From an uncultured Thermoplasmata archaeon (GTDB lineage: Archaea > Thermoplasmatota > Thermoplasmata > UBA10834), in the NCBI GenBank assembly GCA_963748615.1, contig CAVVJQ010000002.1:323240-387239 (forward strand): a DNA stretch of 64,000 bases. The letters are read 5' to 3'. Below, one piece after another: positions 29,957 to 54,328 of the stretch. The notes beneath the pieces were generated by a model, which ran no database searches, was not told the DNA's origin, and was given only the letters and a program-made list of their open reading frames with translations. Position numbers and translations under genes: made by a program. The stretch's first letter is position 1; every line of letters begins with the position of its first letter.

Positions 29957-30004
29957 CTTGTCAAAAGGCTTAACTACAGAGACAATCTTCCCAACATTCC
30001 GTCT

Positions 30005-30108: not shown

Positions 30109-30165
30109 TATCCACCCTCGTCATCCAAGTGACAACTCTAATATGTCAACGAGTCAATCGGCCTT

Positions 30166-32654: not shown

Positions 32655-34655
<2,001 letters not shown>

Positions 34656-37374: not shown

Positions 37375-38088
37375 TTGTTTAGAGACTCGATACAAGGTCT
37401 GGAAAAGGTTTTCAAGAATGACATCGAGAGGCCCAAGGTCATACTCGTCACCGGTCCCCCGGGATCGATGAAGACGAGCTTCTGCTATTCTCTGATGTCG
37501 CACTACCTGAGGGATAAGAACGAGTTCGGCCTCTATGCCACTCTCGAAGAGACGGTTGACAGCCACCTGAAGAACATGGAGAGCATGGGCGTGAAACTCT
37601 CCGCGAAGATGCAGATATCAGACATGACCGATCTCAGGGAGATCGACCAGATCGATGAGGTCATCGGCGATTCTGCGCAGACAGATTACGTACTGTTTAT
37701 AGAGAAGATGATACAGCGTTTCAGGAGGACTCACGGAGATAAGTTCTCGATATTCGTTCTCGACTCGCTCGGCGCGCTCTACTCCCTGATGGAGAACGCG
37801 GAGGACATGAGGAAGAAGATGTTCTATTTCTTCAAGATGCTCAGGGACAACAACCTCACATCATTCATAATCATGGAACGATCGTTGACAGGCGAGTCGC
37901 AGCTTCTCGGAAACGAAGGCTTTCTCGCAGACGGCATCGTGATGCTGGGTCTTGACCGTCAGAGGGGCAAGCTGGTGAGATACCTCCAGGTCGAGAAGAT
38001 GAGGGCCGCGGAGCACAGTATGGAGAAGCACGCCATAGAAGTCAACAAATCCGGAATGCAGGTGCTGGGCCCGTTGCTGAGCACTTGA
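37375..38088 (+). CDS. KaiC-like single-domain ATPase (ArlH/FlaH-sized)
   Basis: 237 aa. Walker A VTGPPGSMKTSF, Walker B IFVLDSLGAL, C-terminal LQVEKMRAAEH block. TTG start 7 nt after AAGGAGGG. Confidence 0.75.
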   Translation: MFRDSIQGLEKVFKNDIERPKVILVTGPPGSMKTSFCYSLMSHYLRDKNEFGLYATLEETVDSHLKNMESMGVKLSAKMQISDMTDLREIDQIDEVIGDSAQTDYVLFIEKMIQRFRRTHGDKFSIFVLDSLGALYSLMENAEDMRKKMFYFFKMLRDNNLTSFIIMERSLTGESQLLGNEGFLADGIVMLGLDRQRGKLVRYLQVEKMRAAEHSMEKHAIEVNKSGMQVLGPLLST

Positions 38089-38203
38089 CACCTCGACATG
38101 GCCGATGCTGCCCGTGTCGCGCAAACCCCATGAGTGTGCGCCGTCCATCCCCCTGGGATCAGGCGCTGATCACGAATGACCTTGTCAACAGGGAAAGGGA
38201 TCG

Positions 38204-39214
38204 ATGATGACAGAAGACCAGAGCATTTCGCAGATAATCGAGGACGCAGTCAAGAGCCTGAGGACCCAGGAGGCCGAGGTCCGCAAGAAGGATCAGGACG
38301 TTCAGGGCCAGAGGTCCGAGCTTCAGAAGATGAAGGCGGAGCTGGAGTCACGTGAACAGATGCTCCGCGAGAAGGAGGACTCACTGAGGGAAACGGAATC
38401 GTCCCTTGAGAGAAAGGACGAGGAGGTCACGGCTCGCGAGGCATCCGTCCAGACCAAGGCGGCCCAGGTGGATGCGAAGAATGCCGAGGCTCTGAAGCTC
38501 GAGGAACGGTCAAAGGCGGCCCTGGCGAATGCGGAGGCGAGGGAGCGGGAAGCCGAGACCTCGTTATCGGAATCATCTCGCGCCCAGGCCGAGACGACCC
38601 AAAAACGCAAAGTGCTCCTCGACCGGGAAGATCAGATGAAGAAGTCCGAGGAGGAACTCCAGAGGCTTATGGAACAGGTGGCATCGAGGCGTGATGCGCT
38701 CATATCTCGTGAGCGTTCCCTGGCAGCTGAAGAGGAATCCATCCGGAATGATCGCGAAAGACTCTCAGAAGACGCTCAGAGGCTCCTCAACAGACAGACC
38801 GAAGTGATCGAGGGCGTCACCGTGGAGCAGGCCGAAGGCATTGAGACAAGCAAGTCCGATCTGGGCGACGACGAGATAGAATGCCCCCGGTGCAAGACGG
38901 TCATAAGCAAGGACGCGATAATGTGCTATTCCTGTGGTCATCAACTGAGGGTGGTCGAACCCGAAGAGATCTCAGAGGATGCATCTGGCCAAGAGGACGA
39001 TGTCGAACCATCCGAGGAAGATGAGGTGTCCTGTCCGAAGTGCAGGACGATGGTCAGCAAGGGTGCGATAATGTGCTACGCCTGCGGTTCCGACCTGAGA
39101 GGTTCGCAGCAGGAAGCGGATGAGTCAGGAAGTCGCGAAGAGGAGAAAGTCGCAGAGGAACCCAAGAAGCCACAGGTCTTTGTCAAGAAGATCGTCAAGA
39201 AAAAGGTCGCTTAG
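38204..39214 (+). CDS. Coiled-coil protein with two C-terminal zinc ribbons (function unknown)
   Basis: About 220 aa of Glu/Lys/Arg-rich heptads, then CPRCKTVISKDAIMCYSCG and CPKCRTMVSKGAIMCYACG, and a basic tail. Confidence 0.7.
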   Translation: MMTEDQSISQIIEDAVKSLRTQEAEVRKKDQDVQGQRSELQKMKAELESREQMLREKEDSLRETESSLERKDEEVTAREASVQTKAAQVDAKNAEALKLEERSKAALANAEAREREAETSLSESSRAQAETTQKRKVLLDREDQMKKSEEELQRLMEQVASRRDALISRERSLAAEEESIRNDRERLSEDAQRLLNRQTEVIEGVTVEQAEGIETSKSDLGDDEIECPRCKTVISKDAIMCYSCGHQLRVVEPEEISEDASGQEDDVEPSEEDEVSCPKCRTMVSKGAIMCYACGSDLRGSQQEADESGSREEEKVAEEPKKPQVFVKKIVKKKVA

Positions 39215-39324
39215 CCAGCATCTGTTCGAACCCTTCGTCGCCATGAAAATATGGCAAATAGCTTTTTATATAGCCGAACTGCTTACTTTGATTCGCAATA
39301 CCCAGCATCTGGGTGGGTGAACTT

Positions 39325-40725
39325 ATGGAACACAGAGCTGGCCCTCTTCTGGCCAACAGATCTCTGAGCGCATTGATTGTAGCCACATTCGTGCTGTCGG
39401 CGTTCGCCGGGTTATTCGTAATGTCGAATCCTGCGCCTACCGCTGCACAGACACCGATCGGTGACCTGAATGTAACTGCCGGCACATACACAATCGAGAA
39501 TGTGAACCAACCTGTAGATGGTGATGTTCTCGTCAGTGGTGGGGAGCTGATAATACGGAACGCTGCTTTGCTGGTGATCAGCAACGAAGGTGTTCAGCGG
39601 ACGGTGACGGTCGAGACCGATGGAACCATGATTCTTGAACATGGCACTCTCACCACCTATCTGGATCAGATCGATCCATGGCCGTTCCTGGTTGTGGATA
39701 TCGATGGAGGGACTCTCATAGCCTCGGAGCGGTCGCTATTGAGTTTCCCAGGCTCGATCACCGTACAGAACGGTGGCGAGCTCATACTGTATGACAGTAC
39801 TATCGAGCCGCTACCTGCAGGGGATATATCCTTGTACCTCTCAGGATCCCCCACGGTAGCCATTGACGCCGCGGATGATGGACCTGAGATCTCAGTCATT
39901 GACGGCTCAATAATGATGTTCGATTCCGAGATAACGAGCCTTCCGGAATATCCTTCCCTGGGTCTCGTCGCAAGCAACCTCACTCTGAGTGGAGAATCTA
40001 CTCTGCTGGCGGTCAACAGCTACATCAGTGTTGACTTCGGACCTGACGTTAGTGCATCTGATTGGTACACTCATAATATGCTGGTCTTGTCGAATTCTTC
40101 AAAAGCCCATCTTTACGGAACATATTTCGATGAGTATTCTGGTAGCTACTCGGCGAGGTCATCTGCCGTCCTTGCTGATGGCGAAAGCTACATTGCATTG
40201 CCTACTTCCTCTGGATCAGAAGATACTACGGGACAACCTTACACTGATCTCCTGGCCAGCAATGAAGGTTCAACATACCACGTCGCTCCAGGGGATGTAA
40301 TGGCCATTGATACTTTCAGTGCAGGTCCTCCAGCGACAGTTGATGAAGCAACGCTGTATGTGAGATATCTCGTGGATGCCGGATATAACGGCGCGAGATC
40401 ATTTACATGGTGCCTTGAAGGAGGAACTGCTGCATCAACTGGAATCACTCCATTGCCGTCTGAGACTTCCTTCGTAGAGAAGAGCTTCGATTTGCGTGAT
40501 GCGGGAGTAACCACCACTAGCGATCTTGCTGATTTGGATATCAACTTCATACACGATGGATCAACAGGCGATGTTCAAGTGGACAGCATGTCCATTGTAA
40601 TCTCTCTGGGGCCAGAAGCCTACATATATAGATGGATCAACCTGACAGTCGGCGATGAATACGGCGTGCCGATTCCCGACTGTGACATTTCATCGACATT
40701 TACGGGGTCTTTGACAGTTCTCTGA
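39325..40725 (+). CDS. Giant surface adhesin, N-terminal part (signal peptide and beta-helix-like module); probably the 5' portion of one gene continuing at 40718
   Basis: ATG 39325 is preceded by GGTGGGTGA. Signal/TM LSALIVATFVLSAFAGLFVM. The ORF ends inside an Ig-like domain that starts YIYRWINLTVGDEYGVPIPD. Confidence 0.75.
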   Translation: MEHRAGPLLANRSLSALIVATFVLSAFAGLFVMSNPAPTAAQTPIGDLNVTAGTYTIENVNQPVDGDVLVSGGELIIRNAALLVISNEGVQRTVTVETDGTMILEHGTLTTYLDQIDPWPFLVVDIDGGTLIASERSLLSFPGSITVQNGGELILYDSTIEPLPAGDISLYLSGSPTVAIDAADDGPEISVIDGSIMMFDSEITSLPEYPSLGLVASNLTLSGESTLLAVNSYISVDFGPDVSASDWYTHNMLVLSNSSKAHLYGTYFDEYSGSYSARSSAVLADGESYIALPTSSGSEDTTGQPYTDLLASNEGSTYHVAPGDVMAIDTFSAGPPATVDEATLYVRYLVDAGYNGARSFTWCLEGGTAASTGITPLPSETSFVEKSFDLRDAGVTTTSDLADLDINFIHDGSTGDVQVDSMSIVISLGPEAYIYRWINLTVGDEYGVPIPDCDISSTFTGSLTVL

Positions 40726-40795
40726 TCAGCCATCTTTCTACTTCGGACTGGGTGAGGGAAGTTCATCTGTTCCACCACAAGTTGTACTTGATTAC

Positions 40796-43700
40796 ATGGA
40801 CGAGACCGCTGAATCATTTGGTGTCACAGGCCCACTCGGTGCCGCGACCATACCCCTAATGACTGATTTGGTGTCTGGTGGCCAATCTCCCAACTCTCTG
40901 TTTGTCGGAAGTTATAGTATTACTGGAACCGTCATACAGGGCGCAGTGGAGCATGCATCAAACGAAACCTTCTCATTCCCTGCATACCCTGCGATGTCGA
41001 TTACAGATCAGCAATTCGACATGACGGTCGATGTTCAAGGCATATCTGCCGAGAGCCCTGACCCATCCAAGTGGTTAGTTGTTCCGCCAAACCTAACGAT
41101 CGAGAACATGAGCTACTATCACGCGGGCGATGTCATAGTGGCGTCTGATGGTAATCTCACGCTGAGGAACGCAGTCTTTGAGCTAGTCCAGTCAGTTGCG
41201 AATGAGAGAACCGTCTATGTCGATGGAACTGCCAACTTCGTGATCGAGGACTCTCAGGTGAACAGTGCATTCGCGATCGATATCATAGTCAAGGGCAATG
41301 GGACGCTCGAAGTCAACAGGTCAGTTCTGAACGGCGTGAACATAGTCGCTATGGACGACGCGCTCGTGATTCTCAGAGATACTGACTTTGATGGTACGTT
41401 GAGCACTTCATGGGACTCATCGGCTAGAATCGTGGTCGTCGACTCCGTACTTGCTATGGCGCCGGTACTGTCTGGCAATGCGTTGGGAGAGTTTACGAAC
41501 TCGAGTGTTCCATCGATCGTGATAACGGAAGACGCAAGAGCATTGATCTACAGATGGATCCACGTGACCGTTCTAGATGGTGGAGACAACCCCCTGCCAG
41601 GAGCGACTGTGTCGACATGGTTCTTTGTGAACGGTACATACTGGTCGAGTGCGCTCAGCGACGAATCGGGGATAGCAGAGATTAGATCCCTGGGAACAAT
41701 ACTGACATCCGAAGGCTCGACGTTTGTCGGCAACTACAAGATCAACTCGACATACATGAGCGACGGAGAAATGCATTTCTCGGATCTGACGATATCCATA
41801 GGCGTCATGCCGTATACTCAGCCCCTGACTGAAAACGCAACATACGCCGTGCTGAGAATGTCCACAGTCGTACTTCCCGATCTTAGCGTGAGGCCGGGTT
41901 ATATTTGGACCGAGCCAGTGGATGTCGTGTACGACTCTGAATGTACGATCTTCGCCTTCATAGAAAACACCGGAGATAAGGTCGCTGAAGATGTTATGGT
42001 TGAGTTCTTGATAGGAGCAGATATCGAGACGGCAACCCTTCTGAATTCGACCGTGATTTCAACGATAAACTCGGACAGTCAGGTGACTGTTCATGTAGGT
42101 TGGATTCCTGACAGTATTGGGACATTCACAGTATGGGTCCGGGTCAACGGTGGGCTCGACGGAACCCCGGATTTCAATGAGCTTTCATTCATTGACAACC
42201 AGGAATGGGTCTACATCCGAGTGTTGGACTACGCTGACCTCTCGCTGAATGCGATCGAATTCTTGGCCGGCGACCCGTTGTTTGCAGTGTCGACCATGCC
42301 TGGCGGACAGACCGTATATGTCCGTTCAGTGTTGTTCAACAACGGTGAGGCTCCAGTCTTGAACCCTGAAGTATCATTGACTGTGAACTATAGCGACTCT
42401 GAGAGCGAGGTCTTCAATCAGACACTGTACGGTGTTCTCTATGGGGGCGCTCAATTCGCGGTTGAGTTCGAGTATTCCGCACCATTTGTGGTGAACAACA
42501 CTGTTTTCACTTTCACAATGGAAGCGAACCCCTATGGTGCAGTGATGGAGACTGACCTGACAGACAACGTGGTGACGGATACGCTCACCATCCTTGATAT
42601 CCGTGAAGATTTCAAAGTCGCCGCGGATGACATCTCGGTGGAAGACGATTCTTATGCCCACGAGTTCGGAACCCGGGTCAATATTACGGCCAATGTCTAC
42701 AACCTAGGTGGAACCGACCCAGGCTATGTGAGCATCGAATTCTCCATTAGGTTGGGCGACTCTCTGAACTACTTGATTGGCATCAAGGAAACGAACATAC
42801 CTGCAGGTATGTGGACGCCAGTCAGAATGCCGTATATGATAAACCTGACGGTTGGAGCAACATATTCCATATTCGTGTCCGTAGACTATGACAACAACCG
42901 GTCGAATGAGAAGAGCGAGACGAACAACAATGCATCGATAGATTTCGAAATCATCGATCTCGTTTATCATATCGAAATTACATCCGACGCGAGCGAGTAC
43001 AAAGCGGGCACCAATGCAGAGGTGACCCTGTACATCTTCTATGGCGCAGAGGCGCCGGCGTCAGGTGCGGAGAAAGCCGTATCTGGGTTGCCAGGTATTT
43101 CCGTTAACCTCGTGAGCCCCGGCGGAGATATTCTCAAGCACGCGGATGCCATTTCGACATCCACGGGCGGTCAGGCAGTATTTACTGTGGTGCTCGATGG
43201 TGAACTTGAGACTGGTCAGTACACGCTAGTCCCAGTCGTTCTCGGAGACGAGCAGCCCAGCTCCTCGATTACGATAAGTGTAGACGGCGCGGTTTCTGGT
43301 CGTGGCATTGCATTGTGGGTATGGCTCGCAATAATCGGGGTGATCGTTGGTTCCGTTCTCGGAGTTACTGCTTATATCTATTTCCGAGGCCTCGGCAAAC
43401 TGGTCGAGTGTGGAGAATGCGGCGCATTCATCCCTGCTGGGAACAAGAGATGCCCGAAGTGTGGAGTCGAGTTCGAAGTCGGCACGATGAAATGCTCTGA
43501 GTGCGGAGCATGGGTGCCTGCAGAATCGACCGAGTGCCCCAACTGCGGTGTGAAGTTCGTTGGCGAGGAGATCGGTGAAGAGGATTACCTCGAGAAGATG
43601 AGAGGCGAGTACGACGAGATGGTCTCTAAATACCGCGAACTGGCAAAGCCCGAGCTCGGAAAGAAGTTCAGCGACAAGAAGTTCGAAGAGTGGTGGGCGA

Positions 43701-44110
43701 CCCAGCCGACATACATCTCTTTCGAGGATTGGCTCGCAAAGGAAGAGGAGAAGCATAAGGAGGGCCCGGTACCATGCCCTGTCTGTGGCACTATGAACCC
43801 GAAGGAATCGAGCGTATGCCACAAGTGCGGCACGGTCTTCGGAGTCGAAAAGGACGTGCCTCCAGGAGAGCAGCCGCCGACCCCACCATCCTCAGGCGAA
43901 CAGGTGCCAGAACCATCCAGAGTCGAACCTGCTCCGCCAGGTGAGAAGGCTCCAGAACAACCGAGCCCACCTCAAGCTGCGGCGCCCAAGATGGTCATCC
44001 GAAGACCCATCGATAGAAAGGTGGTCCCGAAGAAGATCATTAAGACTCCGATAGCGAGGACTTCGGATAAGAACGGCAACGAGTCCGACAACAGCGATGA
44101 TCAACAGTAG
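40796..44110 (+). CDS. Giant surface adhesin, C-terminal part: beta-helix-like, CarboxypepD_reg-like and CARDB repeats, TM anchor, cytoplasmic triple zinc-ribbon and Pro-rich tail
   Basis: No signal peptide. At least three CARDB-like units (e.g. PDLSVRPGYIWTEP...IENTGDKVAEDVMVEF). TM IALWVWLAIIGVIVGSVLGVTAYIYF at about 43303-43385. Ribbons are CGECGAFIPAGNKRCPKCG, CSECGAWVPAESTECPNCG and CPVCGTMNPKESSVCHKCG. The frame is open back to 40715. Confidence 0.8.
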   Translation: MDETAESFGVTGPLGAATIPLMTDLVSGGQSPNSLFVGSYSITGTVIQGAVEHASNETFSFPAYPAMSITDQQFDMTVDVQGISAESPDPSKWLVVPPNLTIENMSYYHAGDVIVASDGNLTLRNAVFELVQSVANERTVYVDGTANFVIEDSQVNSAFAIDIIVKGNGTLEVNRSVLNGVNIVAMDDALVILRDTDFDGTLSTSWDSSARIVVVDSVLAMAPVLSGNALGEFTNSSVPSIVITEDARALIYRWIHVTVLDGGDNPLPGATVSTWFFVNGTYWSSALSDESGIAEIRSLGTILTSEGSTFVGNYKINSTYMSDGEMHFSDLTISIGVMPYTQPLTENATYAVLRMSTVVLPDLSVRPGYIWTEPVDVVYDSECTIFAFIENTGDKVAEDVMVEFLIGADIETATLLNSTVISTINSDSQVTVHVGWIPDSIGTFTVWVRVNGGLDGTPDFNELSFIDNQEWVYIRVLDYADLSLNAIEFLAGDPLFAVSTMPGGQTVYVRSVLFNNGEAPVLNPEVSLTVNYSDSESEVFNQTLYGVLYGGAQFAVEFEYSAPFVVNNTVFTFTMEANPYGAVMETDLTDNVVTDTLTILDIREDFKVAADDISVEDDSYAHEFGTRVNITANVYNLGGTDPGYVSIEFSIRLGDSLNYLIGIKETNIPAGMWTPVRMPYMINLTVGATYSIFVSVDYDNNRSNEKSETNNNASIDFEIIDLVYHIEITSDASEYKAGTNAEVTLYIFYGAEAPASGAEKAVSGLPGISVNLVSPGGDILKHADAISTSTGGQAVFTVVLDGELETGQYTLVPVVLGDEQPSSSITISVDGAVSGRGIALWVWLAIIGVIVGSVLGVTAYIYFRGLGKLVECGECGAFIPAGNKRCPKCGVEFEVGTMKCSECGAWVPAESTECPNCGVKFVGEEIGEEDYLEKMRGEYDEMVSKYRELAKPELGKKFSDKKFEEWWATQPTYISFEDWLAKEEEKHKEGPVPCPVCGTMNPKESSVCHKCGTVFGVEKDVPPGEQPPTPPSSGEQVPEPSRVEPAPPGEKAPEQPSPPQAAAPKMVIRRPIDRKVVPKKIIKTPIARTSDKNGNESDNSDDQQ

Positions 44111-44248
44111 GTTGCCGTCATCCTCAAACCCATAAAACCCTTTGACAGTTTTTCATTTCTCATGTTACAATGCCCTGTCAGTGGATGCCGTATCGCGCCG
44201 CAGCTGATGCATGTAAATGAAGACCTATCTAGGGCAGGATCATCGAGA

Positions 44249-46006
44249 TCAGGTCCGCTGAGGAGGGCCGGTCTCTGCCAGTTTCGCTCGGACCTCTTTC
44301 ATGACCTTGTCTGGATCCTTGTAATATGCAGATATGATGGTGGCGACCTTCTTGTGATTGTCGATACTCATCTTCTTCATGTACTCGAGAATGTCGACAC
44401 GCCTCTTGATCTCCCTTTCCATCTCACGCGGGGCCCAGTTCCTGGCCATCCTGACCTTCTCGTAAACGTAGCTGTGGCCGCTGTAGTTGAAGGTATCATC
44501 TGCCGGGTTCCATGTGTAGACGGAGTTCGTGATCAGCTCATCTGTCTCAGGGTCTATTCCGACGATCTCCGTCAGTGACTTGACCCTTCTGGTCATTTTG
44601 GTCCCGACCTTGACCTGCGCCTGCAATAGCACGATGTTGAGGGCGGTTATCAATGCCCTGGGCAGGTTGATGGGGTCGTTCTCCATCCTATGGACCATCG
44701 CCTGGACATCCTCTGCGTGGAAAGTGGAGTAACAGGTCTTGCCAGTCGCCATGGCTTGGAATACGACATACGCTTCCTTGCCTCTGACCTCACCGACCAT
44801 CAGATACTGGGGCCTCTGCCTCATGGCAGCAGTGAGCAAGTCGAACATATCTATCTCGCCGGAAGACCTTCCCGTGATCATACTCTTCCCACCGAAGCCC
44901 TCTCGAGTCAGACCAGGGACCCAGTTCTCATGGGGTAGGTTGAGTTCTCTAGTATCCTCGATGGAGACGATCTTCATCTGTGGCGGGATGAAAAGCAGGA
45001 CCGCGTTCAGCGTCGTGGTCTTTCCGCTCGCGGTACCTCCGCACACGAGCATCGATTGTCCATGCTCGATGCCTATCCAGAGGTATGCCATCATTTCGGT
45101 ACTCATCGTCTTGAATTTGAGTAGGTCGAGCGGCGTGAACGGATTCTCCTTGAACCGTCTGATTGTGAACGACGAACCTCTCTTCGTGACATGCTTTCCG
45201 AGGGTCGCCTGCAATCTCGAACCGTCCGGGATCGTTGCGTCCAGAAGCGGGCTTGCAACCGAGATGTGCTTACCGCACTTCTGAGCAAGCCATACCACGA
45301 AACCGTCGAGTTCCACCTCCTTCTCGAATCTGAGGTTGGACCTTATTGAACCGTATTTCCTGTGGTAGATGTACAGCGGGACGTCGACCCCATCGCAGGA
45401 GCAGTCCTCCACATTCGGTTCGGTCATCATCACGTCGATGACGCCATACCCAAGGAAATCCCTCAGGAGATAGTACATGACCCTCTCCTTGGATACTGGA
45501 TGCAGCGATATGCCCAGCTGATCCATGAGCTCTTCGATGATCCGCCTGAGGTATTTCTCCTTCTCGGAAGGTTCCTCCTCGGTCATCTTCTCGACAGATG
45601 CGATCAGAGTCTCCTTCAGCAAGGCGAGCACGGCTGCCTCGTCTCCCAGCAGCTTCGGCTCGATCACCTCATATGTGTACTCGTTGGCTTTGTTATCGTA
45701 CCTTATCCTGACATACGAGTAATTCTGCTTGACTGGTACCATCTCGACCTCGTCGATATTCGACTCGGTCAGTTTTGGTATCTCGGTGATCTGGCTGATA
45801 TCGACCTTCACTTCGTTCTTTGTGATTGCGATCATCGCAGGTCTGGGCTTAATCTTCATGAGGAAACCATAGTACGCCGCGAAAAAGCCTCCGCTCTTCG
45901 CCTTCTCCTCCGCTGGAGGGGGAGTCTTCTCGTCCGTTTCAGGCGCGTTTGGCTGCGGTTCCTCCGTCTCTATCTTGACCTGCTCGGTTTCAGACATCTC
46001 AATCAC
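44249..46006 (-). CDS. Type II/IV secretion-family ATPase (ArlI/EpdL/CpaF-like), copy 2
   Basis: Walker A CGGTASGKTTTLNA, EDTRELNLPHENW, Walker B/His box MVGEVRGKEAYVVFQAMATGKTCYSTFHA. GTG 46006 overlaps the upstream stop; ATG 45997 is an alternative start. Confidence 0.9.
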   Translation of the reverse strand: MIEMSETEQVKIETEEPQPNAPETDEKTPPPAEEKAKSGGFFAAYYGFLMKIKPRPAMIAITKNEVKVDISQITEIPKLTESNIDEVEMVPVKQNYSYVRIRYDNKANEYTYEVIEPKLLGDEAAVLALLKETLIASVEKMTEEEPSEKEKYLRRIIEELMDQLGISLHPVSKERVMYYLLRDFLGYGVIDVMMTEPNVEDCSCDGVDVPLYIYHRKYGSIRSNLRFEKEVELDGFVVWLAQKCGKHISVASPLLDATIPDGSRLQATLGKHVTKRGSSFTIRRFKENPFTPLDLLKFKTMSTEMMAYLWIGIEHGQSMLVCGGTASGKTTTLNAVLLFIPPQMKIVSIEDTRELNLPHENWVPGLTREGFGGKSMITGRSSGEIDMFDLLTAAMRQRPQYLMVGEVRGKEAYVVFQAMATGKTCYSTFHAEDVQAMVHRMENDPINLPRALITALNIVLLQAQVKVGTKMTRRVKSLTEIVGIDPETDELITNSVYTWNPADDTFNYSGHSYVYEKVRMARNWAPREMEREIKRRVDILEYMKKMSIDNHKKVATIISAYYKDPDKVMKEVRAKLAETGPPQRT

Positions 46007-46935: not shown

Positions 46936-46936
46936 T

Positions 46937-47980
46937 CTACATCGCCCCTTCCTGTGACATGTTCCAAATGACAAATATGAATCCAAACTGTGAGATCGGG
47001 ATCATCCCTAGGACGATCAGATAGAGGAGCGTGACCATCATGTTGGAGTCGCCTCCACCCACGATTGCCATGATCGCCATGATGAGGACAAGGAAGAGGG
47101 GGAAAGCAACGACGACGGTGACGAAGGATTCAGCGAGCATGCCGAGCGTCTCCATCTGGGACTTCATGGCAAGCTTGTTCTCTTTCTGGTATTCATCCGC
47201 CTTGAGCAGGAAGTACGGCTTGAGTTGCCCGCCAGATGTAGAGGTAGTGACGACACCCTGCAAGAACTCCTGGAACTTGGCCGAGGGTGATCTCTTCGAA
47301 GCCTTCTTGATAGCGGTCAGGATATCCGACCCCAGAAGTTCCGTATCTCGCGTGATCCACGAGGACTCCTCTGAGATCTCCCCGTAGACCTTCTGTCTCG
47401 AGAGTTCCTTGAATATGACATCTATATTGACATCCGCGGACGCCATGGCCGAGATGAAGCTCATCGCAGCTGCGATCCTCTTGTCGATATCCCTGCCTCT
47501 GGACTTGGCCTTCGAGGCTGGTGATCCCATGAGCATCATGAACGCCATCATGGGTAACAGACCGATTGCAAGGCCCGATATCAAGATCCTTATGACTAAC
47601 GATACGCCCAGCACCCCGAAGAGGATGACGCCGACGACCACTGCTATGACTACTCCTATGATGAGTGCGACGATAGTGCTCATGAGCACGAAGGCATAGT
47701 ATTCTTCCGCCCGTATCTTGATGTGGGCCTTGGTGAGTGATTCCTCAAGGCTTTGGTTGTTGGCGCTGGTCATCCGCTCACTCGCATACTTGCCCATTAT
47801 GCGCCAGGACATGTCCTGAAACTTGGTCAGACTGATATAGTCGGGGACAGCGCCCTTGGTCAACCGGATCCCATGAGGTCCGATATCCTCCCCTCTCTGG
47901 GTCAGTTTGGTCTTGAGGTACTCTCCCTTCTTGGTCTCGACTCTCTCGAAGACATCGGAGACTTCAGGCAGAGTCGGCAC
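46937..47980 (-). CDS. T2SSF-domain platform protein (TadB/EpdJ-like half-platform)
   Basis: 347 aa with central TM pairs and a T2SSF-like helical domain (DIDKRIAAAMSFISAMASADVNIDVIFKEL). The GTG start overlaps the end of ATPase copy 1 by 17 nt. Confidence 0.75.
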   Translation of the reverse strand: MPTLPEVSDVFERVETKKGEYLKTKLTQRGEDIGPHGIRLTKGAVPDYISLTKFQDMSWRIMGKYASERMTSANNQSLEESLTKAHIKIRAEEYYAFVLMSTIVALIIGVVIAVVVGVILFGVLGVSLVIRILISGLAIGLLPMMAFMMLMGSPASKAKSRGRDIDKRIAAAMSFISAMASADVNIDVIFKELSRQKVYGEISEESSWITRDTELLGSDILTAIKKASKRSPSAKFQEFLQGVVTTSTSGGQLKPYFLLKADEYQKENKLAMKSQMETLGMLAESFVTVVVAFPLFLVLIMAIMAIVGGGDSNMMVTLLYLIVLGMIPISQFGFIFVIWNMSQEGAM

Positions 47981-49733
47981 CTCCCGTCGGCATCTTCAGA
48001 CCGCTCTGGGAGGCTGCGGGATACATGTCCTTTCGAACCTTCTCCGCTTGTCCCTTGGGGTCCTTGTAGTATGATTTGATGATGTTCCAGATGTCCACAT
48101 GGTCTGACATGTCCTTGGACACCATGTATTTCACGATATCCACACGGCGCTCGAATTCCTCCAGGAGTTCTTCGTGTGTGAGATTCTTCATCTCCATGAT
48201 CTTGTCAAACAGGAAGCTGTGGCCCTTGAAGATGAACTTATCCGTGGCCTGATCCCATTCGTAGACCGTGTTGCTGATGAGTTCGTTCGTTTCGGGTTCG
48301 AAACCAACGATCTCGATGAGCTGCTTGACCCTCCTGACCATGTCCATTCCTACTCTCGCATGAGTCTGGATTATGACATTCCTCAGGGCAGTTAGCAGAA
48401 TTCTGGGACAGTTGATGGGCGGGTTCTCAAGTCTGTTGACCATGCCCTTGACAGAATCCGCGTGCATGGTCGAGAAGGTAGTGTGACCTGTCGCCATCGC
48501 CTGGAACATGGTGTAGGTCTCCTTTCCTCTAACCTCTCCGACGATGATGTAGTTAGGCCTCTGTCTCAACGCGGCCCTGACGAGGTCGTACATGTCTATC
48601 TCCCCTGCGGCCTTTCCATCCGGCCCCCGTTCGCCTGAGCCAGTTCTTGTCGTGCCAGGGATCCAGTTCTCATGGGGTAGGTTGATCTCTCTAGTATCCT
48701 CCATGGTGACGACTTTGGCACCAGGGGGTATGAACAGCGACATTGCGTTGAGCGTCGCCGTCTTTCCACTCGCCGTGCCTCCGGCTATGATGGCCGACTC
48801 TCCATGCTCGACGCTGAGCCACAGGTACGCGACTATCTCCGGTGACGCCGTGCCATACTTGATCAGCTCGACAGGCGTGAACGGTTTCTCCTTGAATCGT
48901 CTGATCGTGAACGATGCACCCCTCGTAGTCACTTCCCTCGCGTAGGTCGCCTGGACTCTGTGCCCTTCAGGTGTAGTACCATCGAGTATGGGGTTCGAGA
49001 CGGAGAGCTGCTTCCCACATCTCTGACCAAGTGATATGACGAACGAGTTGAGTTCGTCCTCATCCTCGAACACGACATTGGTCTTGATGGATTCGAATTT
49101 GTTGTGGAAAAGGAACAGCGGGATGCCCACGCCATCGCAAGACACGTCTTCGACATGAGTGTCACTCATCATTGCATCGATCGGACCATATCCGACGAAA
49201 TCCCTCGTGATGAAGTATTTCACCTTGTCTTCCGAGATCGGTTCAAGCCGGATTCCTCTCGACCTGATATAGCTGTCCACGCTCCTCTCAAGGTAAGTCT
49301 TCTTGTTCATGTGGTCGAGCTTCGCCCATTCATAATCGAGGGTCATCTCGAAGGTGCTCTTGATCTTCTTCATCAGCGCGTCTTCATCTTCGGTAAGCAC
49401 TGGCTCGATCACGTTCATTATGTAATCGCTGGTGGCCGCGTTGTATGTTATTCTCACGTAGCTGAACGGGTCAACCACTGGATAGAACGCCATCTCCTGG
49501 ATATCCGGGTCCGTGATGGGTGGGATTTCGGTGTACGGTGAACCCTTCCCATCCTTCCACTGCTTCCTTCTGGCAGCTGCGCCCTTCGCGGATTTGACCT
49601 TGATGGGTTCGGACTTGAGCCTGCTCACAGCGTTTATGTATCCATGCCAGATGCGAGCACCCATTGGCCGTCTAGGGGCTTTCACGGGTATGTCATATTC
49701 AATTTTCGCCTCTGCCTCAGCCAAAACGCTCAC
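47964..49733 (-). CDS. Type II/IV secretion-family ATPase (ArlI/EpdL/CpaF-like), copy 1
   Basis: Walker A AGGTASGKTATLNA, EDTREINLPHENW, IVGEVRGKETYTMFQAMATGHTTFSTMHA. GTG start 2 nt after the upstream TAG. Confidence 0.9.
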   Translation of the reverse strand: MSVLAEAEAKIEYDIPVKAPRRPMGARIWHGYINAVSRLKSEPIKVKSAKGAAARRKQWKDGKGSPYTEIPPITDPDIQEMAFYPVVDPFSYVRITYNAATSDYIMNVIEPVLTEDEDALMKKIKSTFEMTLDYEWAKLDHMNKKTYLERSVDSYIRSRGIRLEPISEDKVKYFITRDFVGYGPIDAMMSDTHVEDVSCDGVGIPLFLFHNKFESIKTNVVFEDEDELNSFVISLGQRCGKQLSVSNPILDGTTPEGHRVQATYAREVTTRGASFTIRRFKEKPFTPVELIKYGTASPEIVAYLWLSVEHGESAIIAGGTASGKTATLNAMSLFIPPGAKVVTMEDTREINLPHENWIPGTTRTGSGERGPDGKAAGEIDMYDLVRAALRQRPNYIIVGEVRGKETYTMFQAMATGHTTFSTMHADSVKGMVNRLENPPINCPRILLTALRNVIIQTHARVGMDMVRRVKQLIEIVGFEPETNELISNTVYEWDQATDKFIFKGHSFLFDKIMEMKNLTHEELLEEFERRVDIVKYMVSKDMSDHVDIWNIIKSYYKDPKGQAEKVRKDMYPAASQSGLKMPTGGADSA

Positions 49734-49735
49734 CT

Positions 49736-50779
49736 CTAGGGGGCCACCTCGCCCACTGTAACCTGTACCGTCGCGTGCGTGTGGTCCAGGACGTTCACAT
49801 CCTTGATCGTGACTGTCAATGTGTAGTAATCGTTCTGAGTGCCTTCCAAATCATGTAACGTCAGAGGTCCTATCGAGAAGTCAGTATCGTATGTCAAACC
49901 GGCCAACGAGTTGTTGAGTGCCTTGTTGAAGTAAGTATGCCAAGCGTGTCCGTGCTTGCTCACTATCGTGAATGTAAGATCCGCTCCCGCGCTGCTTTCG
50001 TATACATTGGTGTTCGCATAGAGGAGGTCCGCGTATATCCCCTTCGTGCCAGTCCCACCCACGGTCTTATCAAGGCCAAGCATCGAGATCTGCGTCAGTT
50101 TGACGACTCTGCTGGAATCAGTTCCAGCAACGATATCCGTGACCGAGAACTGAAGCCCCGCGATGATGTACTCTCCATCCGATTGGTTGAGTATCAGGGC
50201 GCCACAATCATAGGTCAGATGCTGTTCGACATAGTACCTGTTAGGTGCATAGAAGTCGATGTATCCGCCAGAGTGTCCGTCATCGGTTGTGCTCAACGTC
50301 TGATCGTCGCCAACAAATGTCGAGTTGAACGATGGATACCCCGCGGTGGTTTGAGAACCGAATTGTAATATCCCTGCAGTGGGTGCAGCGAATATAGGTA
50401 TGCCCTGGGCATGTAAAGTTATCGGGACGAAAACGGGAGTGGGGGCCAGAAGGCTGTTCGAATAGTCCGCGACCAACCCGTCGATCTGGGACTTGAGGTA
50501 GATCATCTGCTGAACGACCGTCGCCATGTGCGCGCTCTCGTTATCGCTCATCCAGACAGGGACGAATTGGTTGGTGAACATGCCCATGAACGTAAGGAAT
50601 ACAAGGAGCGACATGATAGTGCCGATTGTCGAAGCAACCCCCTCATCATCGTTCCATCTCGGTGATCGCTTAATACGGCCAATTACGGAGTTTCCAGAAT
50701 AGCTATTTCGAATTTCTGACAAGTCCATCCTACCACCGAAGGGGGGTTTCTGAAGCAACCTAATCAGCGTCTGAAACAT
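49736..50779 (-). CDS. Pilin/FlaF-like membrane-anchored beta-rich protein (first gene of the filament operon)
   Basis: Charged N-terminus, then EG|VASTIGTIMSLLVFLTFMGMF (class-III-signal-like). The rest is Thr/Gly/Tyr-rich beta. An in-frame ATG at 50728 (preceded by GGTGGTAGG) is a likelier start, because the TTTAAATA box abuts 50779. Confidence 0.6.
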   Translation of the reverse strand: MFQTLIRLLQKPPFGGRMDLSEIRNSYSGNSVIGRIKRSPRWNDDEGVASTIGTIMSLLVFLTFMGMFTNQFVPVWMSDNESAHMATVVQQMIYLKSQIDGLVADYSNSLLAPTPVFVPITLHAQGIPIFAAPTAGILQFGSQTTAGYPSFNSTFVGDDQTLSTTDDGHSGGYIDFYAPNRYYVEQHLTYDCGALILNQSDGEYIIAGLQFSVTDIVAGTDSSRVVKLTQISMLGLDKTVGGTGTKGIYADLLYANTNVYESSAGADLTFTIVSKHGHAWHTYFNKALNNSLAGLTYDTDFSIGPLTLHDLEGTQNDYYTLTVTIKDVNVLDHTHATVQVTVGEVAP

Positions 50780-50990
50780 ATTTAAAGCCTTCGTTTCTGG
50801 TATCGTCTGGAATACACCTCATTTTGCCATCCCAGACTGGGCGAATTAGCCCGGTCACGGGGGCCATCGACGTTGATTGATTTCGCTCGAACACCTAATC
50901 CCCCGTCAATTTCCTTTCTTGCGTTTCGCATGATGCGAATCACCGAAGATTTAATACCGAGTTCCGCCTAACTGCCATTCCCAGCAGCGC

Positions 50991-51066
50991 GCCGTGGTAA
51001 CTCAGTTGGGAGAGTGCAAGACTGAAGATCTTGAAGTCGCTGGTTCGAGTCCGGCCCACGGCACCA
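50991..51066 (+). tRNA. tRNA-Phe(GAA), CCA encoded, no intron
   Basis: Acceptor GCCGTGG/CCACGGC, D arm ACTC-AGTTGGGA-GAGT, anticodon arm CAAGA-CTGAAGA-TCTTG, T arm GCTGG-TTCGAGT-CCGGC, discriminator A, then CCA. A TTTAATAC box lies about 35 nt upstream. Confidence 0.95.
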
Positions 51067-51176
51067 TCTCCATGTCAATGACGGTCGGGGGCGTTGCCCC
51101 TCGATATGCAACCATTTGTTGGAATAGATTCATGTCCTGATATGTTCTATATGCGACGGAACGGAGGAGAGCAAGA

Positions 51177-51614
51177 ATGCCAATCAAATCATTCGAACTA
51201 GTGTCGCTCGATGCGAAGAGATTCACAAAATTTGGGGAACGGGTCCCTCAGCTCAGGGTCGACCACAATACTTCAGTGACGAGCATATCTGCGATATCCG
51301 AGAAGGACGCCATGGTGGAATTCACATTCACAGTCAGCTATGTAGGCGTCGGGATAATCAAGATCGAAGGCAAGGTTGTATGGGACGGGGAAGCCCAGAC
51401 CATCGCATCCCAATGGGCCAACAAGAAGGAGCTCCCTCAGACTGTATTCAACCCTATCCTGAACGCGATCTTCGCGAACTGTATGCCCGCATCCGTCACA
51501 GTGGCGCGGGACATAGGCCTGCCACCGCCGTTGCCACCGCCACAGGTCGCGATGAAGCGGAACGCCAAGATGCCGGGCGCGAAGGACCATAAATCGTCCA
51601 TGGAAGTGGCCTGA
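51177..51614 (+). CDS. Hypothetical 145-aa protein (beta-rich core, Pro-rich basic tail)
   Basis: ATG preceded by GGAGGAG. Codon usage matches its neighbours. I recognise no family motif. Confidence 0.45.
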   Translation: MPIKSFELVSLDAKRFTKFGERVPQLRVDHNTSVTSISAISEKDAMVEFTFTVSYVGVGIIKIEGKVVWDGEAQTIASQWANKKELPQTVFNPILNAIFANCMPASVTVARDIGLPPPLPPPQVAMKRNAKMPGAKDHKSSMEVA

Positions 51615-51629
51615 CAAGCCACCGTTCTC

Positions 51630-54011
51630 TTATCTTATGTGGTCCAGTGAGAACGATCCGATGTTCAGTCCGGATTTGGTGAAAGAGTATCTAATGAACG
51701 CTCTTGACTGGACCTCGCAGATACCCTTCACCGATAGGAACATGTTCAGGTTCTCGAGTTTGAACTCGATCATGCCGTCCATGAGCGACCCGAGCATCTG
51801 AATCTCCTGATCCCCATGTACGCCCTTCTCAATCGTGTACATGGAGACTGCTTTGTCTCTCTTTCTTCTGCCAGCGACTGGGCTGAGGAATCGGAATGCC
51901 GTGTTCGGATCCAGATACGCTATGAGTGTGGAGATCGATCTGAACGCCATTCTATAGTATTCGTGGTCTTTCTTGAATCCCTTGGCCGCCTTCTCCAACG
52001 CCTTCTGAATCGATTCATAATCTGTTGGGGCCTCGACGTAATCCGTGTATGGGTCCTCGGTCTCGTCACCCATGCTCCGGGAATACATGTCCACGTATCT
52101 CACGAGTCCCCTGCTCTCATACTCCTCGTATCCTGAGAGCACGAACATCATCTCGTTCCTGATCTCCTTCGGTGATTTCTCGGTGATGACCCATATCGCG
52201 GGGATTCCTTTCTTCAACCCCTCTGCGATGAATGAATTCATGAGCACTTCCTTCCCAGTGAAGGGCGGGCCATAAATGAGCATGTTCGATCCGAAGGGCG
52301 CGCCGCCCAGAAGCAGATCATCGAGTCTGGTGGTCCCGGTCTTGACCTTCTCCTGTTTGAGTTCGATGAGTCTGTCCTGCTCCCTCTTCTCGATCTCATC
52401 TGTTATGAGCCCTTGCTCCCTCGCCCGGAGTTCTTCCTCCTTCATCGAGAAGTACTTCTCCTTGTTCCTTATCTCCTCTTCCTTCTGGGTGATCTGCCCC
52501 TGCAGCTCTTCGAGGCGTTGTTTCATGGTTAATTCGTCAGTGTTCATGAGGTCGCTCTTCTGTTGGGAGACCCTCTTCAGTTCCTCCTCTAGGAGCCTCT
52601 CCCTGAACATCAGGTCCTCCTCTCGGCGGATCATCTCCCGCTCCTTGTAGGCCAGCGGTTCTTTGAGCTTCTTCATCTCATCGTCTCGTATCCTCAACTC
52701 TTCCTTGAGCCTCTCCAATTCTTGCTCCCTCAGAGCGAACGATCGCTCGAGGTTCTGGGCCTCTTCCAACCTCTTCATTAGCGCTGGGTCCAATGCGGAG
52801 CCCTTAGCCGCGGATACCTTCGCTTTCTCTTCCAGATGTTTCATGTCGAATTCTGTCCGGGAGAGTTTCGCCTCCAATTCGTGTATCTGTTCGTTGAGCT
52901 CGCGTTCCTTGGCGGAGAACTCCTCCAGCTCCCTGATGCGCTCTTCGCTGTCCGAAGGTCCTCTTCCATAGGACATTATGCCTTCCTGGAGTGTGTTCTC
53001 CTTTGCCTTGAGCTGCAACTCATAAGCATCGATCTGGGCCATCCTCTGCGATAGCTCGATCTCCTGGCGCTTGAGGACCTGTGCATCCACGGGCATCTCG
53101 TTGATGCCCTTCTCCGTCTTTTCCCTGAGGTCCGTCAGTTGGTTCTCGAGCTCCATGACTTTCAGCCCGAGATCCTCCTTCTGGGCCATCTCGGACGCGA
53201 GCTTGTCCGTGAGGTTCTCCGCATCAGCCGGTGCCCCCTGTTGATTCTTGATGAATTTGATGACTGCGATGCTTCCGCGTTTGACATTCTCCAATTCCTC
53301 TTCCAGCTGCTTCCTGTGAACGCGCTCGGCCTCGACTTCGCTCCTTGTATGGGCTAGTTGTTCCAGGACAGCCTGAGGGTCGAACCCCTCCGTCTCGAAC
53401 TGCTTCAGCGTCTGTTTCAGTGTTTCGCGGAGTTGTGTGATTTCCTCACCGTGCTCGAGCATCTCCTCGGGCACGGTCTTCTCAGATTTGGGGATGCTCT
53501 TGATCTTGGGTTCATCGAGCCATGACTCAAGCCCCTCCTCGGTGCCAGCGAGCCACTTGGCTAGAGAATCGTCACGGATGAGCTCAGGTTCGGTCGCGGC
53601 CACCACATTCTTCTCCTCATGGTCCTCTCCCGAGATCCATGCGGACAGGCCTTCGTCCTCACCAGCCAACCAATGGGCGAGCTCCTTGTTCTCAGGACTC
53701 GCCAGCGATTGGGCGCCCTTGATTATCTTCGCGGCCAATTTGTCTCCGATGCCTCTGACTCCGGCCAATTCATCATGGTCTGCATTCTGCAGGTCATTGA
53801 CATTCCTGTAGCCGGCTCTGAGCAATAAATGAGCTTTTGCCTCGCCAACTCCAGGCACCGACCTAAGCTCCTCGATGTCCCCATCGCTTGAATGAGAATC
53901 CTCTACTAAGGGGGCAGCACAGTGCTCACAGCTGCCCTCGGAGACGGAAGACATCTGCCCGCAATTCGGGCATGAGACGTGACTCTTTTCCGCGTCATCT
54001 TTTTTCGGCAT
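51630..54011 (-). CDS. Zinc ribbon, tandem HhH, long coiled coil and a C-terminal KaiC-like domain (function unknown)
   Basis: CPNCGQMSSVSEGSCEHC; HhH pair LRSVPGVGEAKAHLLLRAG...ELAGVRGIGDKLAAKI. A duplicated motif is present (LAHWLAGEDEGLSAWI and LAKWLAGTEEGLESWL). About 400 aa of heptads follow. The C-terminal RecA-fold domain has LLLGGAPFGSNMLIYGPPFTGKEVL, i.e. P-loop GK followed by E rather than T/S. Confidence 0.75.
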   Translation of the reverse strand: MPKKDDAEKSHVSCPNCGQMSSVSEGSCEHCAAPLVEDSHSSDGDIEELRSVPGVGEAKAHLLLRAGYRNVNDLQNADHDELAGVRGIGDKLAAKIIKGAQSLASPENKELAHWLAGEDEGLSAWISGEDHEEKNVVAATEPELIRDDSLAKWLAGTEEGLESWLDEPKIKSIPKSEKTVPEEMLEHGEEITQLRETLKQTLKQFETEGFDPQAVLEQLAHTRSEVEAERVHRKQLEEELENVKRGSIAVIKFIKNQQGAPADAENLTDKLASEMAQKEDLGLKVMELENQLTDLREKTEKGINEMPVDAQVLKRQEIELSQRMAQIDAYELQLKAKENTLQEGIMSYGRGPSDSEERIRELEEFSAKERELNEQIHELEAKLSRTEFDMKHLEEKAKVSAAKGSALDPALMKRLEEAQNLERSFALREQELERLKEELRIRDDEMKKLKEPLAYKEREMIRREEDLMFRERLLEEELKRVSQQKSDLMNTDELTMKQRLEELQGQITQKEEEIRNKEKYFSMKEEELRAREQGLITDEIEKREQDRLIELKQEKVKTGTTRLDDLLLGGAPFGSNMLIYGPPFTGKEVLMNSFIAEGLKKGIPAIWVITEKSPKEIRNEMMFVLSGYEEYESRGLVRYVDMYSRSMGDETEDPYTDYVEAPTDYESIQKALEKAAKGFKKDHEYYRMAFRSISTLIAYLDPNTAFRFLSPVAGRRKRDKAVSMYTIEKGVHGDQEIQMLGSLMDGMIEFKLENLNMFLSVKGICEVQSRAFIRYSFTKSGLNIGSFSLDHIR

Positions 54012-54190: not shown

Positions 54191-54328
54191 AGTTATTGTG
54201 AATTCATTCATCGGTCACCTATGAGGTTGACCACATCGCATCGTGTGGTTAGGGCGATCCGCAACGAGCACTCTTCTATAGAATCGACCAAAAGGCCAAT
54301 AACCCGTGCATTGATTCTAAGATGCAAA

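Follow-up and report, generated by a model that had tools for sequence, protein, structure and literature searches.

A conserved Thermoplasmata locus that combines a two-ATPase adhesion-pilus machine with a giant zinc-ribbon surface protein and KaiC-like ATPases

In a 64,000-nucleotide stretch of DNA from an uncultured Thermoplasmata archaeon (GenBank assembly GCA_963748615.1, contig CAVVJQ010000002.1, positions 323,240 to 387,239), referred to here as the window, a block of genes at 37375-54011 encodes a type IV filament machine together with a giant surface protein, a zinc-ribbon coiled-coil protein and KaiC-like ATPases. We are confident that the five-gene core of this block encodes an adhesion-pilus machine of an already known kind, namely the CdiP type of euryarchaeal clade 2, with two ATPases and a split platform. 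The assignment is based on the affinities of the two ATPases, on the colinearity of the two platform proteins with CdiPFa,b of Cuniculiplasma divulgatum, and on the gene order listed for Aciduliprofundum. On balance, we lean towards the view that the block as a whole is the home of the PilA-type adhesion pilus of this archaeon and its Thermoplasmatota kin, plus a set of co-inherited and functionally coupled partners. For the coupling of the partner genes to the pilus, judged from sequence, the chances appear about even.

The block was analysed by an open reading frame (ORF) map, Pfam/NCBIfam profile searches, tblastn synteny, AlphaFold2 (AF2) models, Foldseek and hhalign. A sequence-only reading of this DNA had described a surface-filament and adhesion locus, and this description is supported. 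The genes it listed all exist at or near the positions proposed for them, and its domain calls (KaiC-like, zinc ribbons, T2SSE, T2SSF, helix-hairpin-helix (HhH) and coiled coil) hold in the profile searches. Its 793-residue protein has the domain parts described, with the strand now corrected to minus, and its list of genes, right in what it included, overlooked a conserved ORF of 145 amino acids (aa) at 51177-51614. The genes of the machine and its candidate partners are as follows.

49736-50779, minus strand: large minor-pilin-like protein, 347-aa ORF, probably 330 aa from 50728
47964-49733, minus strand: ATPase2, 589 aa, second PilB/GspE-type ATPase
46937-47980, minus strand: PlatA, N-terminal-half platform protein with one T2SSF domain
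46003-46986, minus strand: PlatB, C-terminal-half platform protein with one T2SSF domain
44249-46006, minus strand: ATPase1, 585 aa, PilB/GspE-type pilus assembly ATPase, final gene of the operon
39313/39325-40725, plus strand: AdhN, N-terminal part of the giant surface protein, frame 1, ending in TGA
40714-40717, plus strand: frameshift site in the giant gene, one surplus base relative to the reading frame of relatives
40715-44110, plus strand: AdhC, C-terminal part of the giant surface protein, frame 2; ORF 40796-44110
38204-39214, plus strand: ZnCC, 336 aa, soluble, coiled coil and two C(P)xCG zinc ribbons
37375-38088, plus strand: KaiC1, 237 aa, single-domain KaiC-like RecA-fold ATPase, PF06745
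51630-54011, minus strand: KaiC793, zinc ribbon, two HhH, WLxGE repeats, a coiled coil of ~370 aa and KaiC/DUF7504
51177-51614, plus strand: conserved 145-aa ORF, convergent with the KaiC793 gene

An adhesion-pilus machine with two ATPases and a split platform

The minus-strand operon runs from the pilin-like gene through ATPase2, PlatA and PlatB to ATPase1, and both this order and the domains agree with what had been proposed. It is compact, with 2 nt separating the pilin gene from ATPase2 and with overlaps between the other ORFs. ATPase1 matches T2SSE (E 7.8e-32) and, above its Pfam cut-off of 27 bits, PilB3_C (31.2 bits), and one of its orthologues has a weak match to PilB3_N. Its best solved relative is Archaeoglobus fulgidus GspE (2oap, E 1.8e-129), followed by FlaI (5.7e-92) and CpaF (2.5e-40). 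ATPase2 (T2SSE, E 2.9e-33) is 50% identical to ATPase1, and GGTASGKT and the Walker B region are intact in both. On the FlaI/ArlI model ATPase1 and ATPase2 score 431.6 and 412.9 bits, respectively, both below the cut-off of 550, and their 138.7 and 145.7 bits on the TadA model TIGR03819 fall short of its cut-off, 373.

PlatA and PlatB each carry a T2SSF domain (E 2e-12 and 2.9e-16), and they cover the N-terminal and C-terminal halves, respectively, of the ArlJ and UpsF models. PlatB probably starts near 46935, giving 310 aa, the length at which an orthologue has been called. PlatA is 34.6% identical to CdiPFa (E 2.1e-39) over residues 37-304 of concatenated CdiPFa,b, and PlatB is 28.3% identical to CdiPFb (E 2.5e-34) over residues 337-604; the CdiPFa,b query was machine-read from the sequence printed in the supplement of PMC12448462. 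Taken together, the two proteins equal one PilC/TadC.

The motor had been called 'Tad/Epd-like', which is imprecise. A two-gene platform is indeed shared with Tad/Epd systems (TadB/TadC, EpdJ/EpdK), but it is also present in CdiP and Aciduliprofundum and so does not discriminate. The ATPases are far nearer to GspE and FlaI than to CpaF/TadA, with 2oap well ahead of CpaF and PilB3_C matching ATPase1. Both TIGR03819 and CpaF are weak in comparison with A. fulgidus GspE, and a Tad/Epd assignment is ruled out by these affinities. No Flp- or Epd-type pilins were found.

Two published loci resemble the operon most closely. The CdiP machinery of C. divulgatum, reported in 2025, has two ATPases and a split platform and was called 'unique' and 'enigmatic'; its filaments serve adhesion and produced neither swimming nor twitching (PMC12448462). 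The locus in the window shares with CdiP the two PilB-type ATPases in one operon, the split platform, PilA-type pilins encoded away from the machinery and a Thermoplasmatota host that lacks an S-layer. It differs in that a large minor pilin heads the operon, and PMC12448462 mentions no giant zinc-ribbon protein, zinc-ribbon coiled-coil protein or KaiC-like genes. The direct sequence comparison with CdiP covered its platform and pilin.

The second is in Table S4 of Makarova, Koonin and Albers (2016), where arCOG02911 pilin, ATPase, TadC with four transmembrane (TM) segments, TadC with five TM and ATPase are listed in this order (PMC4858521). Aciduliprofundum sp. MAR08-339 and A. boonei T469 are the two genomes with that order, and their ATPases belong to clade 2 (PMC4858521). 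The next gene there is convergent and encodes a 'Zn-ribbon domain containing protein' of 1,503-1,720 aa with 2 TM, assigned to arCOG01917 (PMC4858521). The main text notes merely that two ATPases lie in one locus (PMC4858521), and arCOG01917 is neither marked nor discussed as a pilus component. The five-gene order is thus identical to that in the window and is likewise followed by a convergent giant gene, for which the equivalence to arCOG01917 is by annotation, position, size and topology only. The claim that this is not a described system therefore fails for the five-gene core (PMC4858521 Table S4; PMC12448462) and stands for the giant protein, ZnCC and the KaiC-like partners. Placement of the products by hidden Markov models, put forward as a check, gives the same division, the core falling into a known type and the partners not. 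The same ATPase family, PilA with Pilin_N and an adhesion function are also found in the Haloferax volcanii PilA/PilB3-PilC3 system and A. fulgidus GspE, although this type has one ATPase and one full-length PilC and no giant zinc-ribbon partner has been described for it.

A filament ATPase and platform beside a single-domain KaiC-like ATPase also recall ArlH-ArlI-ArlJ of the archaellum, and ZnCC and the giant protein could plausibly be functional analogues of its coiled-coil cytoplasmic and envelope-anchoring proteins. We therefore considered a divergent rotary archaellum-like motility system, in which KaiC1 would take the part of ArlH, ZnCC would form an ArlX-like ring and the giant protein would be the stator. 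The 413-432 bits of the ATPases on the FlaI/ArlI model, the matches of the platform halves to ArlJ models and the ArlH size of KaiC1 are in its favour. However, every Arl model stays below its curated cut-off, including ArlH (25.9 bits on KaiC1 against 215) and ArlJ (39-79 bits on the platform proteins against 400-570). Among the block products, no Pfam/NCBIfam match to archaellins, ArlCDE/X, ArlF or ArlG was obtained. The closest solved ATPase is the non-archaellar GspE, and the homologous CdiP filaments gave adhesion and neither form of motility (PMC12448462). Other differences from the archaellum are the presence of two ATPases, the split platform, and the zinc ribbons and missing membrane anchor of ZnCC. 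An archaellum proper is ruled out by the sub-cut-off Arl models and the lack of archaellins in the block, in agreement with the sequence-only reading, and we regard a divergent archaellum-like motor as extremely unlikely.

The first gene of the adhesion-pilus operon probably starts at M18, position 50728, to give 330 aa, because gene callers choose M18 and a TATA-like box lies at 50780-50786. The N-terminus of the product, DDEG|VASTIGTIMSLLVFLTF, resembles a class III signal in a motif scan. Its AF2 model has a hydrophobic helix at the N-terminus, another long helix and β-sandwiches, with a predicted local distance difference test score (pLDDT) of 78 and a predicted template-modelling score (pTM) of 0.74. 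The signature minor pilin arCOG02911 is described as an all-β protein of 250-550 aa with a class III signal (PMC4858521). The 330-aa protein sits in the place held by arCOG02911 in Aciduliprofundum, and its size, operon position, DDEG| motif and predicted all-β body match that description. PDB sequence and fold searches with it gave no usable match; T-cell-receptor/immunoglobulin (Ig)-like Foldseek matches to the model were too weak to be used. Some of its relatives match DUF7289 near the cut-off. An hhalign comparison of the pilin-like family with PilA aligned 13 columns, which lie at the cleavage motif, and was not significant (E 0.11).

The likely major pilin is encoded in trans, ~27 kb upstream of the block, where a candidate PilA gene follows three KaiC-like genes.

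7705-8460, 8457-9047 and 9049-9774, plus strand: three tandem KaiC-like genes, PF06745, immediately 5' of the PilA gene
10038-10553, plus strand: PilA-type candidate major pilin, 171 aa, Pilin_N, outside the block

The PilA candidate matches PF07790 Pilin_N (E 3e-12), has the class III signal RKDAEA|VSPVIATILMVAITVVL and matches the solved pilins 8fj5, 9myg, 8gi2 and 8rey (CdiPB; E 3.7e-4). Its identity to CdiPB is 56% over the N-terminal 41 aa only, and the globular domains differ. The three KaiC-like genes match PF06745 with E 3.5e-53, 2.8e-7 and 1.2e-19; one of their P-loops is canonical and two are degenerate. The order of this trio and PilA is kept in all ~45 inspected metagenome loci of at least 7 kb (from the set L082-L161). 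In these loci PilA diverges more than any other gene (41-74% identity), and some of them have tandem copies of it. KaiC-like proteins beside a type IV filament motor, to which the sequence-only reading had drawn attention, are a real and recurring theme, and this second set of KaiC-like genes adjoins PilA. It is noted that an ORF with five TM segments and a GxGD motif (30166-31077), considered as a prepilin peptidase, proved to be a Yip1-domain protein.

Gene order in related genomes

A scan with ATPase1, taking one genome per species, found 244 relatives, and the best 80 of the 244 loci were fetched; their record titles name Thermoplasmata, Thermoplasmatota or Methanomassiliicoccales. ATPase1 is 68-99% identical across the 80 loci. 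A constant order is seen by tblastn: KaiC793, pilin, ATPase2, PlatA, PlatB, ATPase1, the convergent giant gene, ZnCC, KaiC1 and gyrA. Recurrence of the gene set in related Thermoplasmatota had been named as the first test of the locus, and it is strongly confirmed by the 80 fetched loci. Presence was counted as the number of loci with the gene over the number with enough flanking sequence among the fetched relatives.

ATPase2: 69/69 loci
Giant protein convergent with ATPase1: 69/71 loci
Pilin: 56/58 loci
KaiC1: 36/37 loci
KaiC793: 42/49 loci
gyrA: 30/37 loci
ZnCC (tblastn): 25/37 loci

A ZnCC-type protein usually lies between the giant gene and KaiC1. Its count is an underestimate, since the protein is of low complexity and Pfam detects it in locus L063, where tblastn fails. 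In one clade (L055-L067), gyrA and KaiC793 are no longer adjacent, and the run from pilin to KaiC1 is intact. There the run is flanked by genes for NUDIX, PCNA and an ABC ATPase at one end and, at the opposite end, by genes for DUF835 and a different protein with multiple zinc ribbons. As this run survives the loss of both neighbours, the boundary of the module is placed at pilin to KaiC1, which makes eight genes. KaiC793 and the 145-aa ORF would then be lineage-limited neighbours and later additions. The adjacency of gyrA, which is also a faithful neighbour, means that conservation alone is no proof of function.

Two side observations concern these relatives. Within the same clade, L060 and L063 encode a stand-alone DUF835 protein two genes past KaiC1. 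The full module is also present in environmental Methanomassiliicoccales (L036-L079), including metagenome-assembled genomes (MAGs) titled Methanomassiliicoccus sp. The 2016 census had reported Methanomassiliicoccus genomes to be free of secretion ATPases, and the two findings together indicate that some lineages have undergone loss.

The giant surface protein, ZnCC and the KaiC-like proteins

In the window the giant gene is broken. AdhN ends at a TGA (40723-40725) after 466-470 codons, and the other 1,104 codons follow in the next frame, which opens at 40715. Over the break the relatives read FTGSTTFGGQPSFYFG, whereas the window gives FTGSLTVL and then a stop in one frame and QFSDQPSFYFG in the other; three-frame translation against orthologues places the surplus base in 'ttg aca g ttc' at ~40717. 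Deletion of this base restores an uninterrupted protein of 1,598 aa, and 22 of the 23 testable relatives have one ORF of 1,575-2,040 aa. The simplest explanation of the break is mutation or misassembly, not a programmed event, because the relatives have a single ORF, the site has no homopolymer or slippery run, and AdhC lacks a signal peptide of its own. A programmed frameshift and a two-gene arrangement were both rejected on these grounds. The '~1,570-aa adhesin' proposed earlier is thus correct as a single gene in 22/23 relatives and in its three tail zinc ribbons, but in the window its ORF is broken near 40717. It should be added that MAG relatives on long contigs (L007, L010, L059 and others) show genes (pilin, giant protein, ATPase2) that are each split into several matches. 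Indel errors in the assemblies are the apparent cause, which calls for caution about the frameshift in the window as well.

The architecture of the rebuilt protein is that of a membrane-anchored surface protein, with a signal/anchor helix at residues 18-36 (numbered from the GTG at 39313), a membrane anchor at 1331-1349 and a cytoplasmic tail that contains six CxxC and three zinc ribbons. The ectodomain has 22 N-x-S/T sequons, compared with only 1-2 in each of three cytoplasmic proteins of ~590-790 aa. In the AF2 model of AdhN, a right-handed β-helix, with pLDDT >85 for residues 45-200, is followed by a jelly-roll domain. The overall pLDDT of the model is 66.7, from a shallow alignment of 11 mostly partial homologues. 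Foldseek returns phage tailspike β-helices first (5w6h, E 2e-4), and the jelly-roll is weakly similar to carbohydrate-binding modules (E ~0.02-0.08). AdhC matches CARDB (E 7.3e-13), DZR (E 3.3e-9) and Zn_Ribbon_1 (E 8.9e-9) and contains a second β-helix-like module, an internal duplication with AdhN (E 4e-5). CARDB/Ig-like domains come after the β-helix modules and are followed by the membrane anchor and the tail. A TATA-like box lies 5' of the giant gene.

Compared with the closest relative, L001, the nucleotide identity of the backbone is 91-94%, and it falls to 74-86% over ZnCC and the giant ectodomain (38000-44500), with ~1 kb (40000-41000) that is scarcely alignable. By this pattern the stretch is a hypervariable surface-protein island, with divergence typical of exposed surface proteins. 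A disordered exterior protein layer of ~20 nm has been reported on Thermoplasmatales (PMC12448462). Most likely the giant protein is either an adhesin that binds glycans or part of such a layer.

ZnCC consists of a coiled coil of ~200 aa, two zinc ribbons (Zn_ribbon_3, E 2.2e-14; DZR, E 1.4e-10), an acidic linker and a C-terminal basic motif, KKPQVFVKKIVKKKVA, and it has no hydrophobic segment. Its C-terminus reads KKPQ[IV]FVKKIVKKK, and the tail of the giant protein (AdhC) also ends in a basic motif, PKMVIRRPIDRKVVPKKIIKTP. The pattern [KR][KR][IV][IV][KR][KR] is conserved at the end of both proteins, in pairs such as SIRKIIKRK (ZnCC) and LRRIVKRP (giant) in Methanomassiliicoccales, and RKILKRK and PKKVIKKP in other clades. 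A relaxed form of the motif lies within the last 60 residues of 26/28 ZnCC and 63/67 giant orthologues, with linkers around it that are not conserved, and the strict form occurs in just 2 of the 169 ORFs of the window. The shared motif is the strongest internal evidence in the block, and it suggests that ZnCC and the giant protein work together and that both tails may dock on one common cytoplasmic partner.

A further protein with several zinc ribbons and a helical C-terminal half (571 aa; 26000-27715, plus strand) is encoded ~9.6 kb upstream of KaiC1. A homologue (E 1e-26) is encoded divergently beside KaiC1 in L060 and L063, and the 571-aa protein may be another member of the zinc-ribbon set.

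KaiC1 matches PF06745 (E 1.1e-33), its best solved relatives are KaiC, PH0186, PH0284 and SSO2452, and its orthologues are 62-99% identical. Its P-loop, GPPGSMKT (37435-37458), departs from the canonical GxxxxGK[ST] by an M in place of the invariant G, a change kept in 37 of 39 orthologues. In KaiC793 the P-loop is GPPFxGKE (~51860-51885), with E in place of S/T, and is conserved throughout. These non-canonical P-loops suggest altered nucleotide handling in both proteins. The KaiC equivalog models score 45-90 bits on the two proteins, against cut-offs of 408-546. A KaiC circadian oscillator was rejected, as KaiC1 and KaiC793 have a single KaiC-like domain each and no block product is KaiB-like. 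The KaiC793 family has 204 matches, and the 120 listed are all close relatives; the only names among the matches listed are 'hypothetical' and 'KaiC/GvpD/RAD55'. Its Methanomassiliicoccales orthologues lack the zinc ribbon and HhH. The 145-aa ORF beside it has tblastn matches in 47 related loci, is called as a gene in one relative and has no match in Pfam or the PDB. It might be a partner of KaiC793.

The domain content of KaiC793 raises the alternative that the block is a DNA-handling system, in which a pilus machine with RecA-fold, HhH, zinc-ribbon and SMC-like proteins would serve DNA uptake or exchange, or tether the chromosome to the membrane. The protein does combine RadA-like N-terminal HhH motifs with a RecA-superfamily C-terminal domain, gyrBA is adjacent, ZnCC has weak matches to SMC models, and the basic tails could conceivably bind nucleic acid. 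The SMC matches, however, come from coiled-coil composition alone and are far below cut-offs. The KaiC793 orthologues without zinc ribbon and HhH also speak against DNA handling, as does the separation of KaiC793 and gyrA from the module in clade L055-L067. No nuclease, helicase or membrane DNA channel was found among the block products by Pfam/NCBIfam. We consider a DNA-handling system very unlikely.

Coupling of the partners to the pilus and neighbouring features

In the adhesion-pilus reading that we prefer, the two paralogous and apparently active hexameric ATPases would dock on the PlatA/PlatB platform and drive PilA out of the membrane into a filament for adhesion, not swimming, and the 330-aa pilin would prime or tip this filament. 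The giant protein would be a heavily N-glycosylated, membrane-anchored protein whose ectodomain of ~1,290 aa carries the two β-helix modules and the CARDB/Ig-like domains. At the base of the pilus motor, KaiC1, which is of ArlH size, ZnCC and the giant tail may come together in an assembly with a regulatory or scaffolding role, an analogue but not a homologue of ArlH with ArlX/ArlCDE of the archaellum. Through such an assembly, the building of pili would be linked to contact with a surface or to anchoring of the coat. KaiC-like proteins are known to act on type IV filament systems, as ArlH and CirA do (PMC10983859). Published clade 2 pilus loci have associated KaiC families, and other pilus loci of archaea encode zinc-ribbon proteins (PMC4858521).

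Several points weigh against this reading. The KaiC1 P-loop is deviant, and the protein fails the ArlH model. With five in the 64 kb, KaiC-like genes are common enough for adjacency to arise more readily by chance. This very genome has a frameshift in the giant gene, so that the gene may not be needed, unless an assembly error is to blame; the gene is also convergent with the operon, and its upstream TATA-like box suggests a promoter of its own, so that co-transcription is excluded. The homology of arCOG01917 to the giant protein of the window is by position, size, topology and annotation, not by sequence, and the Aciduliprofundum table lists no KaiC-like or coiled-coil gene beside the giant gene. 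Neither profile comparison nor fold search gives statistical support to the pilin-like call for the 330-aa protein. Finally, gyrA is nearly as faithful a neighbour (30/37) as the partners are, and much of the synteny may be vertical inertia within one class.

This last point leads to the most serious alternative, in which the synteny is inherited without shared function, the giant protein is an independent surface glycoprotein and the KaiC-like proteins are general signalling hubs. The gyrA adjacency and the placement of all 80 loci in one class-level group agree with it, as do the convergent giant gene with its TATA-like box, the abundance of KaiC-like genes in the window and the Aciduliprofundum locus listed without KaiC or coiled-coil gene. 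Three observations oppose it. The pilin-to-KaiC1 run persists where the adjacency of gyrA and KaiC793 is broken; a giant zinc-ribbon protein adjoins ATPase1 also in the distant Aciduliprofundum, with wholly different flanks; and at least two of the proteins, ZnCC and the giant protein, are linked by a conserved terminal motif that both carry. Purely inherited synteny is, in our judgement, unlikely, though to be taken seriously.

A more specific form of the coupling is doubtful at present. In it, the motor would be physically wired to an exterior-layer glycoprotein via the zinc-ribbon tail, ZnCC and KaiC1, as an independent counterpart of ArlF/G, ArlX/CDE and ArlH. If true, this wiring could explain the retention of two ATPases.

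We found no published description of the giant protein, ZnCC and the KaiC-like ATPases as pilus partners, and no published account of the constant presence of ZnCC and KaiC1, of the shared terminal motif, or of how widespread and conserved the two-ATPase arrangement is. The supplementary table of PMC4858521 already shows the giant protein next to the operon, but no published interpretation of this adjacency was found. With at least 244 relatives, plus Aciduliprofundum, the two-ATPase split-platform arrangement is no oddity of one acidophile. The partners are candidates for anchoring and regulating a pilus machine in archaea without an S-layer, and the tail of a membrane protein and a soluble coiled-coil protein share what may be a short docking motif that can be tested. 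Why the machine has two ATPases, and what anchors a pilus where an S-layer is lacking, is an acknowledged puzzle that is thereby turned into testable protein-protein hypotheses. Relatives available in culture are C. divulgatum and A. boonei. If the partners should be unrelated to the pilus, a widespread locus whose usual label is 'hypothetical' or 'FlaI/FlaJ' still gains a correct annotation.

The block lies between gyrA and an hdrA-like gene, as had been described, and profile searches identify the following flanking genes. The tRNA-Phe noted earlier is placed by ARAGORN and is the sole match in an Rfam scan of the block.

32718-34655: gyrB, upstream boundary
34666-37248: gyrA, upstream boundary
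50991-51066, plus strand: tRNA-Phe (GAA), ARAGORN, Rfam 67.4 bits, a neighbour outside the system
54221-56740: hdrA-like gene, downstream boundary

The minus-strand KaiC793 gene diverges from the hdrA-like gene. Elsewhere in the window, at 27731-30124 on the minus strand, an archaeal protein of 797 aa has DUF835 at its C-terminus, joined to a DnaA AAA+ ATPase domain of bacterial type (PF00308, E 8e-50).

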